Position numbers and translations under genes: made by a program. This document shows, piece by piece, positions 9,237 to 54,228 of a stretch of DNA of 64,000 nucleotides. Source of the stretch: Escherichia phage UPEC06; the sequence record MW250786; one strand, 5' to 3'. The notes beneath the pieces are model-generated. The model saw nothing but the letters and a program-made list of their open reading frames with translations, had not been told where the DNA came from and ran no database searches. Position 1 is the stretch's first letter. Every line of letters starts with the position of its first letter.

Positions 9237-11660
9237 ATGGCTGTTGAAGTAATTGCAACAACAAAGAACCGAGTCATATTTGAAACTGACAAAGGTTCCT
9301 ATCGAAAAGCTCGTGAGGAGATCCGAAAACTCTCCAACGAATGGAAAAAGGCTTCAACAGAGGCTACCGCTGCCGGAAAGAATTCTCCTGCTGAGGCTTA
9401 TAAACAATCCGCTCGTGAAATGAGACTAGTCAGTAAACGTCTGGAAGAAACTCGGAAGCGTGAGGAGAAGAAGGCCACTGATTATCGTATTGCTCTGGCA
9501 AAGAAAGAAGCCAAGGCAAAAGAGGCAATTCAGAAGGTTTCTGCTGCAAGAATACGACAACAGGTTAAAAGCCTGACGGCTGCATCCCCTGGTTCTGCTG
9601 AGATGAGAAAGTTCTATCAGGAACAGGAGAAAGCTGCCCGTGCTGCTGCAAGATCTGCAAACCGTACAGCGACACCTTTACCGCCTTTCAACATCCAACG
9701 TGTGGAAGCTGCAAATCAATTATTATCTCGCGGTAACAGAGAGCCAGGGTCAGGTATTGTTGGAGATCCTAATAGCCGATTCAACCCTGATTTAATTGCT
9801 GCACAAAACAGAGCGATGCAACGTAGTTCTCGTATCAAAGAGAGAATGGAGAAGCAACAAACTCAAGAACAGGAACGTGAACGTGTCCGCGCTGCTCGTG
9901 CTGCTGCCCGTATTGATGATGTTACAGCACAACAGCGTATTCGTCTATCTTCTCGTTATGGTCGTGGTTATGCAGGTGCTTTGGGTCGTGACTCGGAAGG
10001 TCGTGGGATTGAAGATCTTAATAGACAATTCCGTGCAGGAACGTTATCATCTGGTCAGTATCGTCAAAGCATACAGGCGCTAGAAAGACAATTCCGTGCT
10101 GCACAGTCAAGTGCTGGATCTTTCTCTTCCACACTTAAAGATGTTCGTTCCAGCCTGGTAAGTGCTACTGCCGCATACGGAGTTTTCTCAGCAGGTGCAT
10201 CAATAACTCGTCAAGGTCAATTCTTTGAAGGAATCAACGCAACTTCTCTATTGATCTCTGATTCGGCAGAAGAAGCTGGTCAGCGTGTTAAGTTTGTTCG
10301 TGACGAAGCATACCGTTTAGGTTTGGATCTGAAAACTGCATCGCAGGGATTTACCCAGTTAGCGATCTCTGCTGATGGTGTTATTAGTAAATCTCAAACA
10401 GACGAATTATTTAGTGCATTTTCTGAATATTCCACCGCACTTCAGGTCGATCCCGTAAGATATCAGCGTGGCATTACAGCAATTCAACAGATCCTTGGTA
10501 AAGGTCAAGTAATGGCTGAAGAACTTAAAGGCCAGTTGGCTGAAGCAATTCCAGGTTCCTTGCAGGTATTCTTGAAAGCAACTCAGGAAGCTTTTGGTGA
10601 CACCTCTATCGACATTGCAAAATTGCTCAAGCTGATGGAAGACGGTGAATTGAAAGCCTCCAAGATCATACCTTTGGTTGGTAAATACTATGCAGAGGCT
10701 GCTAATAAAGGTGGTGCACTGGATAAAGCTTTGGAAAGTAACCGTGTTGCTTATCAGCGTTTAACCCAGACTTTTGCAGAGTTCCAAAACAAAATATTCC
10801 AAGGTGGCTTTGGAGAACAACTTACAAGAGTGTTCAATAACTTAGCTACGATCCTGTCAAGTAATGGTAATGTTGCCAGCACCATTGGTAGATTCTTCGG
10901 TAACGTAATTGAAGGGTTTACAGACATGGTTCTTGAAATTCACGATAACTTGGTCCTTCTCGACCGTGTTGTGACTTACTATTTCAAGAAGATTGGTGTT
11001 GAAGGTGAAACTCTTCGACAGGTGTTCGACTGGGGTTCTTATCTCCTCGGGATTGGATTATTCCTTGGTGGATTGACTAAAGTGTTCAACATCCTTGCTA
11101 AGATTGCAGGACTTAAAGGTGCACTTAAGGAAATTCGTGGTACACTCGGTGGTGATTTGGCTACAGGTGGAAAAACGAGCACAGGTGCAAGCACAACTGC
11201 TTCTGGCGGGGCAGGTACACCAGGTCAAACCAGCGTAGCGGGTAGATTCAGTCAGCTTGGTAAGCTTGGCAAACTCTTCGGCCTTGGTACTCTTTACTCA
11301 GCAGGGTCAGAGATCAATGACCGCTTTATTCAAAGTGGAGAGAGCCGATTGGCTGGAGCAGGGCTTGACGCAACAGCTTTCCAGCAGCAATATGGTGTAA
11401 CTCCACAACCTGTCGGGTTAACGGATGTGTTCATGGAGTTGTTTGGTGGCTCTCGTGACATAACTGTAGATCCTAACACTATCTCGACTCCATCTGGTAT
11501 TCGCCCTAGCGGATTTCCTCTGGAAACTCCAGCAGCACCACCTGAAGGTAAGATCACCGTTGAGATCAAGAGTGGAGAGATTCGTCAATATATCCGTGCA
11601 ATTGTGGATGAAGAGAACGGATTCAATATCAACCTGCTCACTCAGGGTGGTAACCAATAA
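9237..11660 (+). CDS. tail tape measure protein
   Basis: 807 aa, Ala/Gln/Arg-rich coiled-coil-like N-half, Gly-rich C-terminal region; follows chaperone pair. Confidence 0.7.
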   Translation: MAVEVIATTKNRVIFETDKGSYRKAREEIRKLSNEWKKASTEATAAGKNSPAEAYKQSAREMRLVSKRLEETRKREEKKATDYRIALAKKEAKAKEAIQKVSAARIRQQVKSLTAASPGSAEMRKFYQEQEKAARAAARSANRTATPLPPFNIQRVEAANQLLSRGNREPGSGIVGDPNSRFNPDLIAAQNRAMQRSSRIKERMEKQQTQEQERERVRAARAAARIDDVTAQQRIRLSSRYGRGYAGALGRDSEGRGIEDLNRQFRAGTLSSGQYRQSIQALERQFRAAQSSAGSFSSTLKDVRSSLVSATAAYGVFSAGASITRQGQFFEGINATSLLISDSAEEAGQRVKFVRDEAYRLGLDLKTASQGFTQLAISADGVISKSQTDELFSAFSEYSTALQVDPVRYQRGITAIQQILGKGQVMAEELKGQLAEAIPGSLQVFLKATQEAFGDTSIDIAKLLKLMEDGELKASKIIPLVGKYYAEAANKGGALDKALESNRVAYQRLTQTFAEFQNKIFQGGFGEQLTRVFNNLATILSSNGNVASTIGRFFGNVIEGFTDMVLEIHDNLVLLDRVVTYYFKKIGVEGETLRQVFDWGSYLLGIGLFLGGLTKVFNILAKIAGLKGALKEIRGTLGGDLATGGKTSTGASTTASGGAGTPGQTSVAGRFSQLGKLGKLFGLGTLYSAGSEINDRFIQSGESRLAGAGLDATAFQQQYGVTPQPVGLTDVFMELFGGSRDITVDPNTISTPSGIRPSGFPLETPAAPPEGKITVEIKSGEIRQYIRAIVDEENGFNINLLTQGGNQ

Positions 11661-19540: not shown

Positions 19541-19550
19541 CCTTAGATGA

Positions 19551-19568
19551 GTCGGGCTTCGGCCCGAC
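19551..19568 (+). other. stable UUCG hairpin without U-tract
   Basis: GTCGGGC-TTCG-GCCCGAC, lies in the 5' end of the track ORF 19547..19912. Confidence 0.4.
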
Positions 19569-19579
19569 TATGGAGACTT

Positions 19580-19912
19580 ATGATTGTTGATATAATGGCA
19601 GTTCTTAAAGCACTTTGGGGTCTTTTAACATTTATTTTGCTGGGTGCACTAAAGATCTTTTACACCGACTTTAAAAAATTAGAGTCACGTCAAAGCGAGC
19701 TTGAAAAAGATGTTCTTCGTTTGAAGGAATCTGCGGTTACTAAGGATAGTATCGATGCCATTCTTGACCGTAAGATAAAACATATCACTGATACGATCCA
19801 GGATATTAGGACCGATATCACAGATATGCGAAAGGAAGCAAAAGAAGAAAACCACGCTCTACAGAAGGATATTCGAGAATTACTAAACAAAATTATTGAG
19901 AACCGCAAATGA
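19580..19912 (+). CDS. small membrane/coiled-coil protein
   Basis: Hydrophobic N-terminal segment then charged helical region; start uncertain (19547, 19580 or 19595). Confidence 0.4.
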   Translation: MIVDIMAVLKALWGLLTFILLGALKIFYTDFKKLESRQSELEKDVLRLKESAVTKDSIDAILDRKIKHITDTIQDIRTDITDMRKEAKEENHALQKDIRELLNKIIENRK

Positions 19913-20367
19913 TTACAGCCATAATATATGGCATTTGTTTCGTAATCCTTGCTACTCGAAAAGAGAGTGGAACAAAGATAATGGCTGGGCTTTGCCTAGC
20001 CTATCTCGTATTGGAGAACCTGATCCTTTGGTTCTTCTCTACGCAACAATATTTCGACATCACTCTTTATTTTAATGTTCTCTGGACATTGGATTCGATA
20101 CTGCTTTTCACTATGGGTTGTACAGTGAAAGGATTACGACAAAAACTTATCGTATGCCTAAGTATTCCGTTCATGCTTATTCAAGTGTTTGCAATCCAAT
20201 ATCCAGAATTGTTCCCCTTATGGGTTTACGAATTCGCTCTTAGAGACGCTCACAAATATTTCATAGAAACCTTTGTGTTCGTTTATTCTTGGAAGGATAA
20301 TACCGTACCGGAATGGATAAGGACAGCAGTGGTGATATTTCTGGTGCTCATTGCCCATATGGTATGA
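19909..20367 (+). CDS. multi-pass membrane protein
   Basis: Several hydrophobic segments; ATGA overlap with upstream ORF. Confidence 0.45.
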   Translation: MITAIIYGICFVILATRKESGTKIMAGLCLAYLVLENLILWFFSTQQYFDITLYFNVLWTLDSILLFTMGCTVKGLRQKLIVCLSIPFMLIQVFAIQYPELFPLWVYEFALRDAHKYFIETFVFVYSWKDNTVPEWIRTAVVIFLVLIAHMV

Positions 20368-20389
20368 ACATTGATAATGAAGGTGATCT

Positions 20390-20650
20390 ATGTTAAAATT
20401 TCTCAAAGACCTCGTTACCTCTGCGGTGGAACCAGATAAAGCTTCCCATACAAAGTTTTGGTCTAACGTAGGTATGGCTGCTATGACTGCCGTCTTTCTA
20501 TGGTATGGATTCAACAATACATTGCCTGAATGGTATGTGTGGCTTTATGCTCCTACGGTAGTGGCTCCACACCTTTTGAGTGATCTCATTAACCTCCGCT
20601 GGGGATTATCTTTGAAAAAAGATAAAGGCCCTTCTGACGAAAACAAGTAA
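20390..20650 (+). CDS. small membrane protein
   Basis: Hydrophobic central segment (MAAMTAVFLWYGF). Confidence 0.4.
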   Translation: MLKFLKDLVTSAVEPDKASHTKFWSNVGMAAMTAVFLWYGFNNTLPEWYVWLYAPTVVAPHLLSDLINLRWGLSLKKDKGPSDENK

Positions 20651-25173: not shown

Positions 25174-25206
25174 AAAAGGCGCTCAAATGAGCGCCTTTAT
25201 TTTTAT
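25174..25206. terminator. bidirectional terminator between convergent modules
   Basis: GGCGCTC-AAAT-GAGCGCC flanked by A-tract and T-tract, between + gene ending 25171 and - gene ending 25220. Confidence 0.6.
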
Positions 25207-26913: not shown

Positions 26914-27501
26914 TCAAGGACGTTTTGGTGGACTAACGACACCTTTTTTAGATAAAGGTAATTCGTCTGCATCTTTTCCACGAAGAGATTCTAGCCACTC
27001 ATCTAAAGACAGGGGTACTTTACCATCACCTTTGGACCACACAGACAAGCAATACAGATCGTATGCAGATGGACCTCGATCACCTTTGTCACCATTCGGC
27101 CCTTTTAAGCTCTCCAACCAATCCTTTTCGTTCAGTGGGATAGCACCTGGATCTTCTTGATGAAGAACTCTTAGGTATGTTTCATAAGCAGACTCTCCAC
27201 GAGGACCCATTTGACCCTTCTCACCTTGTGGCCCTTTTGCATAATCTGCGTACTTAGATTCCAGATATGCAGACTTCACACCTTCAGGGGCAACGGAAAC
27301 CTTATACAATGACCAAGCTAACAGAGCTATCCAACAAGCAAACAGTGCAAGCGGATAAGGGATCATTGAAGTAAAGAATGACAGAGCTAAAATTACAACC
27401 TTGTTCTTGTGATTACGACGGAAAGCGATGATCACAGGGGCTAACCAGATAGCAAAGATAACCCACGCAGATAAGATAAACAACCAACTAATGTATTCCA
27501 T
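26914..27501 (-). CDS. membrane protein with two collagen-like/SAY repeats
   Basis: N-terminal hydrophobic segments; duplicated unit KGPxGxKGxxGPxxxSAY...PLxxxxWLESLxG. Confidence 0.45.
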   Translation of the reverse strand: MEYISWLFILSAWVIFAIWLAPVIIAFRRNHKNKVVILALSFFTSMIPYPLALFACWIALLAWSLYKVSVAPEGVKSAYLESKYADYAKGPQGEKGQMGPRGESAYETYLRVLHQEDPGAIPLNEKDWLESLKGPNGDKGDRGPSAYDLYCLSVWSKGDGKVPLSLDEWLESLRGKDADELPLSKKGVVSPPKRP

Positions 27502-27689
27502 TAAGCCTCCTCGGTATCGTCTTTAAAGTAATCTAACATCCAACTTTCTACAGGGGTTGCATAGTAACCCGTTCGACCTTTCTTTTGAAACTCCATGATA
27601 ATTTCATTTGCAATACCTTTTGTGATTGCGATCCCGATCAGTGCACCACCAGGTCCCATTACTGCATGTGAACTAAGATCATTACTCAT
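27501..27689 (-). CDS. hypothetical small protein
   Basis: ORF in operon. Confidence 0.35.
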   Translation of the reverse strand: MSNDLSSHAVMGPGGALIGIAITKGIANEIIMEFQKKGRTGYYATPVESWMLDYFKDDTEEA

Positions 27690-27981
27690 TTTTAACCCCC
27701 TTCATTTTATCTCTTAAACTTTGAGCATCCCACGTATAACCTGAGGAGATACCTTTTTCACGTTCACTATCTTTGAACTTGCAAATTACAGATTTTGCTT
27801 CACCATCAACAACAACCGCATAACTGTTGTAATAATTGTGTTGCTTCTTGCAAAATTCGTGTAACTCCTTAACCTCTATTGGCATCAGAGAAGGTAGATT
27901 TTTGTATCGCTTTGTCTGATCATCTTCACCATCTCCGCAACCAACAAGAAGAAGTATACATAAAATGATTAACCTTTTCAA
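27682..27981 (-). CDS. predicted lipoprotein
   Basis: Signal peptide with lipobox LLVGC. Confidence 0.45.
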   Translation of the reverse strand: MKRLIILCILLLVGCGDGEDDQTKRYKNLPSLMPIEVKELHEFCKKQHNYYNSYAVVVDGEAKSVICKFKDSEREKGISSGYTWDAQSLRDKMKGVKNE

Positions 27982-28129
27982 TAGCTACCCCCAAAATATT
28001 TTGTAATCTCTACTGCAAATATTGTCCCAAGTATAAACCATGTGGCACTTAGTACGTTGAAGGGTAAAAACCTTGATCCTGTAAGAGAAACCATAATGAA
28101 AAACGTTACAAAAATCTCTGGAGAAATCA

Positions 28130-28531
28130 TCATTGTTTGATAGTCCCCTTGGCGATCATCTCGTCAAGTTCATCTTCCGCACGACACATAATCTGATAGA
28201 TAGTCTCTGGATTGTTTAAGAATTCTGTGTACTTTTTGATACGACAAACTAAACGTGCACGAACTTTACGCTCACGGGCCACATGATTAAAGTAATGTCC
28301 CTTTTGTCTGTAGATCCAAGCATAATATACAGTTTTTGCTCTATTGCGATCACAACCTAAACGTTCAGCCAACAGAGTGTAAGGGTCATTATTAGTGGGA
28401 CCAAACAAAAATATTTCTGCAAAACTTTCCTTCATGATACGAGATTCTTCATCCGTGATTCGCGGACATTCTTCAGAACCGTAGCGTGGGGTTTTAGTGG
28501 CATTTGGCTTCTTAGGGTATACTTTACGCAT
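28130..28531 (-). CDS. hypothetical protein
   Basis: ORF with GAGGAG RBS. Confidence 0.45.
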   Translation of the reverse strand: MRKVYPKKPNATKTPRYGSEECPRITDEESRIMKESFAEIFLFGPTNNDPYTLLAERLGCDRNRAKTVYYAWIYRQKGHYFNHVARERKVRARLVCRIKKYTEFLNNPETIYQIMCRAEDELDEMIAKGTIKQ

Positions 28532-46969: not shown

Positions 46970-47159
46970 TATTTAGTTCCTCATATTCATATGGGTAGAG
47001 TAGATATCCTTTGTTGTCTTTTAGTGCTACAGCTATAACACTCTCAAGGTAAAAATCATCGTCATAGTGCATTTCTTCAATTACAAGAATATCACCTTTC
47101 TTTGGATGATCATCGCGATCACTGAAATCATTTAGTAGTTTTATTTTTACGTTTTTCAT
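46962..47159 (-). CDS. hypothetical small protein
   Basis: ORF in operon. Confidence 0.35.
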   Translation of the reverse strand: MKNVKIKLLNDFSDRDDHPKKGDILVIEEMHYDDDFYLESVIAVALKDNKGYLLYPYEYEELNND

Positions 47160-47340
47160 ATAACATCTCCGCTGCTACAAGGGATAAGATCATTGCCATA
47201 TACATTACAATGGAAGTCACACTGATCTGAATGAAAACCTCATCGGTTACATGATCAAAGTAAGCATTCTTTACATATCTTACGCCCACGAGCCAAAATA
47301 CCATTACTACAGCAAATGTCAGTATCATACGTTTTATCAT
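47128..47340 (-). CDS. small two-TM membrane protein (holin-like candidate)
   Basis: Two hydrophobic segments, 70 aa, directly after hydrolase gene. Confidence 0.4.
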   Translation of the reverse strand: MIKRMILTFAVVMVFWLVGVRYVKNAYFDHVTDEVFIQISVTSIVMYMAMILSLVAAEMLYEKRKNKTTK

Positions 47341-52521: not shown

Positions 52522-52779
52522 TCAACTAAAAATTAAAGAAACAACGTGATAAATTACCTGAGGAACAATGATCAGAAAGTATAGATCAACAAACCCTGAG
52601 ATAAAGTGATAAGCCTTCAGCTTTGTACGTTTACCTTTGTAAAAATCAGAGGCGATTTTGAAATATTTATAAAGAGTTCTTACAAATGCAAAACCGATCA
52701 ATCCTAATCCAGTAAGAACCACAACAAACACTGAAAACTGTACGTCAGCACTAAAAACACCAACAATAAGATCTAACAT
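52522..52779 (-). CDS. small membrane protein
   Basis: Two hydrophobic segments. Confidence 0.4.
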   Translation of the reverse strand: MLDLIVGVFSADVQFSVFVVVLTGLGLIGFAFVRTLYKYFKIASDFYKGKRTKLKAYHFISGFVDLYFLIIVPQVIYHVVSLIFS

Positions 52780-53054
52780 TAAATTTCCTCCAAATCAGAT
52801 TCTACGATATAGATGCCTGGTGAAACTCTATAAGCCCAAGTGTTAAAAGTACAAGAATACATAATTCCTTTTACTTTGTAAGTTTTATTTGCAAACTGGC
52901 TTACAGGGTTAGTGACTTTCACCATTGTGTCACTTGCAAACTTAGGCATACCGTGCTTTGAAATTGCTTCACGATCAACTTTGTAAACATCCCTCCCAAA
53001 GAACTTTTCTAGTGGGCAAAGATTATTCTCAAAATCAGTACCCATAGTCAACAT
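52779..53054 (-). CDS. hypothetical small protein
   Basis: ORF in operon. Confidence 0.35.
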   Translation of the reverse strand: MLTMGTDFENNLCPLEKFFGRDVYKVDREAISKHGMPKFASDTMVKVTNPVSQFANKTYKVKGIMYSCTFNTWAYRVSPGIYIVESDLEEI

Positions 53055-53301
53055 CTCCTGTAATTACCGAAGTGCTTTTCTTTGTCTTACCATTTGAAGT
53101 CTTGATATGAGTATCTGCATGAGGACAATACACCACATTCAGACTCATATCTCCTGGGTTAGCTTTGAGACGATAAATCTTACAACCTGCCTCTTTCATT
53201 TCTTGCGGTAAAATGTAATTAGTAGTCTTATCGACAACACCCTTTTGATCACAACCGGAAATGAAACATATCATAAAAATCGCAGCAATAATCTTTTTCA
53301 T
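53035..53301 (-). CDS. predicted lipoprotein
   Basis: Signal peptide with lipobox FISGC. Confidence 0.45.
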   Translation of the reverse strand: MKKIIAAIFMICFISGCDQKGVVDKTTNYILPQEMKEAGCKIYRLKANPGDMSLNVVYCPHADTHIKTSNGKTKKSTSVITGDVDYGY

Positions 53302-54108: not shown

Positions 54109-54144
54109 TTTTAAACCCTCGTTGTTTGTATGAGCTAACTATAC

Positions 54145-54158
54145 GAGAACTTGAGAGG
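54145..54158 (+). repeat. isolated copy of GAGAACTTGAGAGG motif in divergent promoter region
   Basis: Same 14-mer core as the 4-copy array at 63079-63246. Confidence 0.5.
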
Positions 54159-54169
54159 AAGATCAATAC

Positions 54170-54197
54170 TTGATTTGTATTTTATTTTCATTATACT
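54170..54197 (+). promoter_or_regulatory. sigma70-like promoter candidate
   Basis: TTGATT-N16-TATACT about 30 nt upstream of ATG 54229. Confidence 0.4.
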
Positions 54198-54228
54198 GTG
54201 CACATCTAAAACAAGAAGGGGATAAGAA

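Follow-up and report, generated by a model that had tools for sequence, protein, structure and literature searches.

What two small lipoproteins do for a virulent myovirus, and whether they keep a second phage out of the infected cell, is the question raised by two open reading frames (ORFs) in a stretch of 64,000 nucleotides from Escherichia phage UPEC06 (sequence record MW250786), the whole of which is called the window here. ORF1 (27682..27981) and ORF2 (53035..53301) both lie on the minus strand and were found where the original prediction had placed them; that prediction had read them as lipoproteins of the early region that might block receptors for superinfection exclusion in the manner of T5 Llp or, alternatively, be components of outer-membrane spanins. 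As read from their sequences, both genes encode true bacterial-type lipoproteins. Our best guess, by analogy, is that both products are accessory periplasmic factors and that ORF1, probably with an Imm-like membrane protein encoded in its operon, blocks genome entry of a second phage. Of the new facts, the linkage of ORF1 to this Imm-like gene tells the most, and the result as a whole is a sound annotation with a testable hypothesis, modest and without surprise. The window is Vequintavirinae (rV5-like) coliphage DNA: a 4-kb stretch around the finding is 92-96% identical to vB_EcoM-LTH01 (LTH01), A73, W70, A5-4 and A7_1, five Escherichia myoviruses of this subfamily with genomes of ~140 kb, and one protein source gives the genus Septuagintavirus for this phage group.

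Lipoprotein nature and families of the two proteins

Lipoprotein signals were called with a broad PROSITE PS51257-type rule and with the strict lipobox pattern [LVI][ASTVI][GAS]C. Both ORFs matched both, as had been predicted, and were the only two of the ~108 genes called in the window with a lipobox match at the called start; shuffled sequence gave ~2.4 lipobox matches per ~1,500 start/stop pairs, which corresponds to ~0.2 expected among real gene starts. Each precursor fits the usual description of a signal peptidase II substrate, with a positive n-region, a short h-region and a lipobox whose cysteine is expected at about position 15-35, and the hydrophobic stretch of each is too short to score as a transmembrane (TM) helix. 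Since the lipid cysteine is conserved across relatives, the lipoprotein call is settled for both. The N-terminus of ORF1 reads MKRLIILCILLLVGC, the mature part continuing GDGEDD, with the codon of the lipid Cys15 at 27939-27937; that of ORF2 reads MKKIIAAIFMICFISGC, then DQKG, with Cys17 as the lipid cysteine. In E. coli the residue after the lipid cysteine (+2) steers sorting to the outer or the inner membrane, and Asp at +2 acts as a signal to avoid the Lol (lipoprotein localization) pathway. Under this rule, Gly+2/Asp+3 predicts outer-membrane sorting of ORF1, and Asp+2/Gln+3 predicts retention of ORF2 on the inner membrane.

For the family search, the mature domains of both families were concatenated in one alignment, which was searched once and returned 50 proteins covering both; single-sequence searches with each ORF returned close relatives only. 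Scans of both ORFs and their neighbours against Pfam, NCBIfam and PADLOC gave nothing significant, the only matches being sub-threshold ones to Imm_superinfect and Collagen on the ORF1 neighbour, and a phmmer search of both ORFs against all PDB chains gave no match. Homology between ORF1 and ORF2, which hhalign reported at 95.7% probability over the full length, was rejected: the pairing was driven by the signal peptides and stood at 1.3% for the mature domains only, and the two proteins are, on this profile comparison, unrelated to each other.

ORF1 starts with a TTG codon (27981-27979) that shares bases with the upstream gene's TGA stop (TTGA), with a GGGGG Shine-Dalgarno-like run 6 nt upstream. 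In relatives (loci L005, L015, L018 and L020 of our collection) the equivalent start is ATG or GTG, always overlaps the upstream stop (NTGA junction) and is likewise preceded by a G-rich Shine-Dalgarno-like run; because its position matches the ATG and GTG starts of these relatives (ATGA/GTGA/TTGA), the TTG start is real. Database entry A0A8T8L763, a version of ORF1 of 67 amino acids (aa) in which the signal peptide is lost, is a mis-annotation, since it starts at the internal Met33. In the family alignment (28 sequences, 36-93% identity) G14, C15, C44 and C67 are invariant, and the +2 residue is Asp in half of the relatives. An exhaustive HMMER search with the mature-ORF1 profile against 1.84 billion representatives returned only 12 clusters, which makes this a narrow family; its members come only from Certrevirus, the window's own genus, SSBI34 and a few metagenomic relatives. 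Comparison of nonsynonymous with synonymous substitution rates (dN/dS) between ORF1 and close relatives rested on 0-2 synonymous substitutions, too few to interpret. The AlphaFold2 (AF2) model (predicted local distance difference test, pLDDT, 78; core >90) predicts a compact alpha/beta domain whose fold has no match in the PDB. In phage A7_1 (L022, OP795442; aligned to window positions 27480..28140) an out-of-frame deletion of 224 bp removes the whole mature domain of ORF1 and spares its signal peptide and all neighbour genes, a natural knockout in a phage that still grows on K-12. Growth on E. coli K-12 thus does not require ORF1, which fits an accessory gene.

ORF2 matched PHROG 902 (E 1.7e-11). 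In the alignment of its family the lipid cysteine is present in 19 of 21 sequences, C59 is invariant and C40 nearly so; against LTH01, dN/dS of the gene is 0.04. Two variants, proteins P0050 and P0051 of our collection, have a signal of signal peptidase I type and no lipobox. P0050 lies on the wastewater contig L025, and one of the two variants is encoded after OmpA-domain and ABC-permease genes, in a context that looks bacterial and not phage. Nearly all ORF2-family proteins (relatives P0003, P0004, P0027 and P0030 to P0051) carry a precomputed PF16225 (DUF4884) tag, which stands unmarked, meaning E at most 1e-5, on P0045 and P0049; hmmscan with the local Pfam copy did not return PF16225 even at E 10, a discrepancy that is likely due to a difference in library version. 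The literature gives no function for DUF4884. The family occurs in 126 phage records (Vequintavirinae, Asteriusvirus, Eneladusvirus, Felixounavirus and others); among virulent myoviruses of enterobacteria, at least four groups carry it as a single gene, with neighbours that differ from lineage to lineage and a membrane anchor that varies.

The Imm-like partner of ORF1 and the proposed function

The order of lipoprotein gene followed by Imm-like gene is kept in nine of ten independent contexts. The usual fuller order is a ~140-aa PHROG 12333 protein, a two-TM protein of 49-51 aa, the lipoprotein, a membrane protein of 105-195 aa and a DUF7325 protein, and most junctions in this block are stop/start overlaps of 1-4 nt. 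Homologues of the two-TM miniprotein occupy the same position in POP15, L015, L018 and L020; the 62-aa ORF that lies between ORF1 and the Imm-like gene in the window occurs in the window's genus only and has no family match and no clear TM segment. The Imm-like protein consists of an N-terminal Imm_superinfect-like TM domain, collagen-like Gly-X-Y repeats and a C-terminal motif, DADE(L/I)PLSKxGV, of which DADE(I/L)PLS is invariant among orthologues; a membrane domain and a collagen-like region in one protein are an unusual combination. At 195 aa, as against 105-127 aa elsewhere, the window's protein is longer owing to an internal duplication (SAYxxY...PLxxxxWLESLxG, present twice). It matched PF14373 (Imm_superinfect) at 20.0 bits (E 6.5e-4) and phrog_1039 'immunity to superinfection' at E 2e-5, and five of eight orthologues matched PF14373 at 20.5-25.0 bits, two of them over the full profile. 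Because the PF14373 match is consistent and sub-threshold, the protein is named Imm-like and is not counted as a member of the family. By tblastn its membrane domain is found in the same phages as ORF1, and in A7_1 in addition.

One distant ORF1 relative (P0055, at L027 3001..3366) has an extra N-terminal hydrophobic segment ahead of its lipoprotein signal peptide, with the Imm-like gene still next; the TM miniprotein encoded upstream may have been fused to this relative, or miscalled as part of it. The label 'virion structural protein' found near the module in phage CR9 comes from gp037, which the window lacks, and applies neither to the lipoprotein nor to the Imm-like gene. None of the module proteins is among the 26 virion proteins of phage CB7 (PMC7344957, section 2.7).

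In the mechanism proposed here, both proteins would be exported by the Sec pathway and then undergo lipidation and cleavage by signal peptidase II, at Cys15 (ORF1) or Cys17 (ORF2), and each would display a small folded periplasmic domain, probably with one disulfide bond. The two-TM miniprotein, the lipoprotein and the Imm-like protein would form an accessory envelope module that acts after adsorption, in which the Imm-like protein, by analogy with T4 Imm, would sit in the inner membrane and stop a second, related myovirus from penetrating the membrane or translocating its genome, the tethered ORF1 domain being the periplasmic partner of the Imm-like protein. T4 Imm binds the tape-measure protein, by which genome translocation is blocked (bioRxiv 10.64898/2026.03.06.709160); as the window also encodes a tape-measure protein, the ORF1 trio is proposed as a post-adsorption immunity module. 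ORF2 would be a free-standing, horizontally mobile factor whose most likely action is to bind or inhibit a target in the periplasm or the envelope. Its anchor, which is of inner-membrane type, of outer-membrane type or absent, suggests that only periplasmic placement is needed, and such variability is typical of a binder or inhibitor. Superinfection exclusion is one plausible purpose of ORF2. Of the exclusion originally envisaged, a broader post-adsorption sense may hold for ORF1, supported by its conserved Imm-like operon partner, and kinship with Llp or Cor in sequence or fold does not.

We put the probability of the exclusion-module reading as a whole at a little under one half (about 0.45), and several points weigh against it. 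All PF14373 matches, those of the orthologues included, lie below the Pfam gathering threshold of 27.9 bits, and BLAST gave no link from the 26914..27501 protein to T4 Imm; P0057, the most distant ORF1 relative examined, lacks an Imm-like neighbour. The +2 residue varies among relatives of ORF1 (G, K, N, D or L), which argues against a mechanism tied to one membrane, and among those of ORF2 (D, N, S, A, E or R, with two relatives not lipidated); as it varies in both families, no fixed membrane location and hence no fixed partner can be assumed. The structure model of ORF2 was unusable (pLDDT 58). ORF1 lies at the distal end of a 29-kb minus-strand block, adjoining the tail genes, and scans for sigma-70 promoters and terminators, which might have spoken for 'early' expression, gave chance-level counts and were uninformative; the timing of expression of both ORFs is something we can only infer.

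Alternative explanations

Most of the weight left by the exclusion-module reading falls on other accessory envelope functions, and a role of the two proteins in the periplasm outside exclusion is a possibility to be taken seriously, if short of an even chance. The options are timing of lysis through a SleB-like hydrolase and its holin, protection of the envelope, inhibition of a host periplasmic enzyme or defence, and membrane-associated assembly. No homology links either ORF to an exclusion protein, ORF1 is dispensable, and members of the ORF2 family stand beside many different neighbours, in one case in the bacterial OmpA/ABC-permease context. The window moreover encodes an exported hydrolase that would need periplasmic control (PMC7344957): 47337..47852 (minus strand) is a 171-aa SleB-like peptidoglycan hydrolase with a cleavable-looking signal peptide (MKKLVLCGLICTLSLAPGVTYA, then KE) and a match to phrog_938 'endolysin' (E 5.6e-27), and the overlapping gene 47128..47340 (minus strand) encodes a candidate holin of 70 aa with two TM segments. 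The two genes, which correspond to CB7_83 and CB7_82 and lie mid-block among the replication genes, make up a second part of the lysis apparatus described for these phages (PMC7344957). Against such roles, neither ORF is adjacent to this hydrolase/holin pair, no specific alternative has positive evidence, and the strict linkage of ORF1 to the Imm-like protein points to genome-entry immunity.

A bolder form of the exclusion-module reading is unlikely. It would see in the ORF1 operon a machine of three parts, not described before, that gives contractile-tailed phages immunity at the stage of genome entry: a collagen-like trimer rooted in the inner membrane would extend as a stalk into the periplasm and, together with the tethered lipoprotein, capture or block the tail tube or the tape-measure protein when a related phage superinfects. 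Several families of large virulent phages would share ORF2/DUF4884 as a second periplasmic exclusion factor, mobile in its own right.

Slightly more doubtful again is the proposal that one or both ORFs are lytic-conversion lipoproteins of Llp or Cor type. Both are small lipoproteins with two further conserved cysteines, as in Llp, Gly+2 predicts outer-membrane sorting of ORF1, and ORF1 lies ~2.5 kb from the tail genes; in addition, a homologue of ORF2 in Asteriusvirus vB_Ec-M-J is annotated 'Cor superinfection exclusion protein'. This label was rejected as evidence, as it rests on a PHROG match at E 9e-4. The Cor family phrog_1119 itself matched at E 0.15 (ORF2, residues 1-47) and 0.071 (ORF1, residues 1-20), in both cases at the signal-peptide end, and alignment of the family profiles by hhalign with T1 Cor (sequence from AY216660) covered only 17-20 signal-peptide columns. 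The phmmer search of both ORFs against every PDB chain, presumably including the deposited FhuA-Llp complex, gave no match. Comparison with Llp is valid as a functional analogy only.

The genetic setting differs as well. In T5, llp directly adjoins the receptor-binding gene pb5, and Llp, which has a Cys11-Cys58 disulphide, acts on the TonB-dependent transporter (TBDT) FhuA (PMC9586334). Neither ORF adjoins a gene for a receptor-binding protein, the neighbours being small unknown or membrane proteins; four genes lie between ORF1 and the tail-gene block, and the tail-fibre gene is one gene further, on the other strand. As the receptors reported for Vequintavirinae are the NGR glycan or lipopolysaccharide (PMC11990801) and, in Certrevirus, flagella (PMC7344957), and not TBDTs or porins, receptor masking from the periplasmic face is the less likely course.

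The other half of the original prediction, a role as outer-membrane spanin (o-spanin), in which one ORF would serve to fuse or disrupt the outer membrane at lysis, was rejected as highly improbable. It could draw on the small size of both lipoproteins, on weak matches to the 'Rz-like spanin' families phrog_812 and phrog_6073 (E 0.1-0.17) and on the membrane-protein gene that comes after the lipoprotein gene in the ORF1 operon; these matches, however, are confined to the N-terminal 26-39 residues (signal peptide and linker), and the gene order is opposite to that of spanin pairs. No gene for a type-II coiled-coil inner-membrane spanin (i-spanin) lies upstream of ORF1 (51-aa two-TM protein) or ORF2 (116-aa soluble protein), ORF2 is predicted to remain on the inner membrane, and some of its relatives are not lipidated. 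Rz1 is short and largely unstructured, unlike the compact domain modelled for ORF1. An o-spanin, sorted to the outer membrane, is expected to have no Asp at +2; ORF1 has Gly+2, ORF2 has Asp+2/Gln+3, and half of the ORF1 relatives have Asp+2.

A canonical, separated pair with overlapping stop and start sits elsewhere, beside the large terminase gene in LTH01 (95.7% identical; 72459-73117, L016 9460..10118), outside the window. There a 119-aa i-spanin, with a single TM segment at its N-terminus and a tail that is charged and helical, is followed by a 99-aa lipoprotein whose start its stop overlaps, with matches of the pair to the Rz-like spanin families phrog_4297 (E 2.5e-20) and phrog_1267 (E 2.4e-14). 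The LTH01 lipoprotein reads MKKIIAGIILCFGLVGC, then QSKE. Since LTH01 has this terminase-side o-spanin, a third lipoprotein is expected in the genome of the phage studied here, and a Rz/Rz1-type pair is described at the same locus in Certrevirus CB7, rV5 and PVP-SE1 (PMC7344957, section 2.8). Neither ORF1 nor ORF2 adjoins hydrolase, holin candidate or spanin genes.

Gene surroundings and comparison with known systems

The features of the window that bear on both ORFs are collected in Table 1. ORF2 is the third gene in a leftward unit that begins at the divergent intergenic region 54109-54228, and the gene upstream of it encodes the 116-aa soluble protein. In the tail block, just upstream of the tail-fibre gene, 19547..20650 (plus strand) encodes three successive small membrane proteins of 121, 152 and 86 aa (phrog_5345, phrog_7451 and phrog_1322 'membrane protein'), the first of which has weak spanin and bacteriocin-immunity matches (E ~2e-3).

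Table 1. Coordinates of the two lipoprotein genes, their neighbours and the main blocks of the window
Feature	Position	Strand	Remarks
Tail and baseplate genes	1-25171	+	
Tape-measure protein	9237..11660		
Tail-fibre gene, 1077 aa	20663..23896	+	
Bidirectional terminator-like hairpin, perfect 10-bp stem (AAAGGCGCTCAAATGAGCGCCTTT)	25175-25198		exactly between the convergent tail block and minus-strand block
Long block with DNA polymerase and many small genes	25220-54108	-	
DUF7325 / PHROG 16220 protein, 126 aa	26479..26859	-	conserved downstream neighbour of the ORF1 block
Imm-like membrane protein, 195 aa	26914..27501	-	ORF1 operon partner
62-aa ORF	27501..27689	-	between ORF1 and the Imm-like gene
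ORF1 lipoprotein precursor, 99 aa, PHROG 15849	27682..27981	-	mature 85 aa after cleavage
ORF1 signal peptide and lipobox (MKRLIILCILLLVG, then C)	27937..27981	-	
Two-TM miniprotein, 51 aa, PHROG 22594	27978..28133	-	stop overlaps ORF1 start (TTGA)
133-aa protein, PHROG 12333	28130..28531	-	opens the syntenic block, ahead of the ORF1 operon; conserved
85-aa membrane protein	52522..52779	-	second downstream neighbour of ORF2; CR9 equivalent gp114 annotated 'membrane protein'
91-aa protein, PHROG 14148	52779..53054	-	downstream neighbour of ORF2, conserved beside it in Vequintavirinae (CR9 gp115)
ORF2 lipoprotein precursor, 88 aa, ATG start, PHROG 902	53035..53301	-	mature ~72 aa
ORF2 signal peptide and lipobox (MKKIIAAIFMICFISG, then C)	53251..53301	-	

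To our knowledge, only a handful of systems by which virulent phages exclude a second infection are understood at the molecular level, namely T5 Llp, T4 Imm and T4 Spackle. If the ORF1 operon is confirmed as a module built on Imm with a lipoprotein as partner, the Imm mechanism would extend to rV5-like phages; these are widely used in therapy cocktails, whose efficacy is affected when members exclude one another. More than 100 sequenced large virulent phages carry DUF4884/PHROG 902 with no function assigned, and a function found for ORF2 could annotate all of them. The annotation itself is corrected in three respects: TTG and GTG starts are real, a truncated 67-aa entry is in the database, and a weakly based 'Cor' label is in circulation.

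Among known systems, Rz1-type o-spanins resemble the two proteins as phage lipoproteins of similar size and in the stop/start overlap with a membrane-protein gene; the differences are that the real pair lies elsewhere, that in the ORF1 operon the genes stand in the opposite order and no type-II coiled-coil protein serves as partner, and that ORF1 is predicted to be folded and ORF2 has an inner-membrane signal. With DUF4884 (PF16225) / PHROG 902 the likeness of ORF2 is one of family, through its own match to PHROG 902 and the PF16225 tag of its close relatives, although the PF16225 match was not reproduced with the local Pfam copy. T5 Llp and the Cor proteins of T1, phi80 and N15 are likewise small periplasmic phage lipoproteins (mature ~60-85 aa), encoded by a virulent phage and probably containing an intramolecular disulfide, and their accessory, non-essential character is shared by ORF1; the differences are the lack of detectable kinship in sequence or fold, of a receptor-binding neighbour and of a known TBDT or porin receptor in the subfamily, and the predicted inner-membrane retention of ORF2. 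From T4 Imm (PF14373) the operon partner of ORF1 differs in its sub-threshold match and in its collagen-like repeats and C-terminal motif, which are absent from T4 Imm; from T4 Spackle (Sp), ORF1 differs in being lipid-anchored and in having no sequence match to any PDB chain (Spackle included, if deposited) and no PDB fold match, and the T4 genes imm and sp are not known to share one operon. The likeness to T4 lies in the Imm_superinfect-like TM domain of the ORF1 partner and in the pairing of an inner-membrane with a periplasmic protein in a contractile-tailed phage, where Imm and Spackle together stop secondary genome entry.

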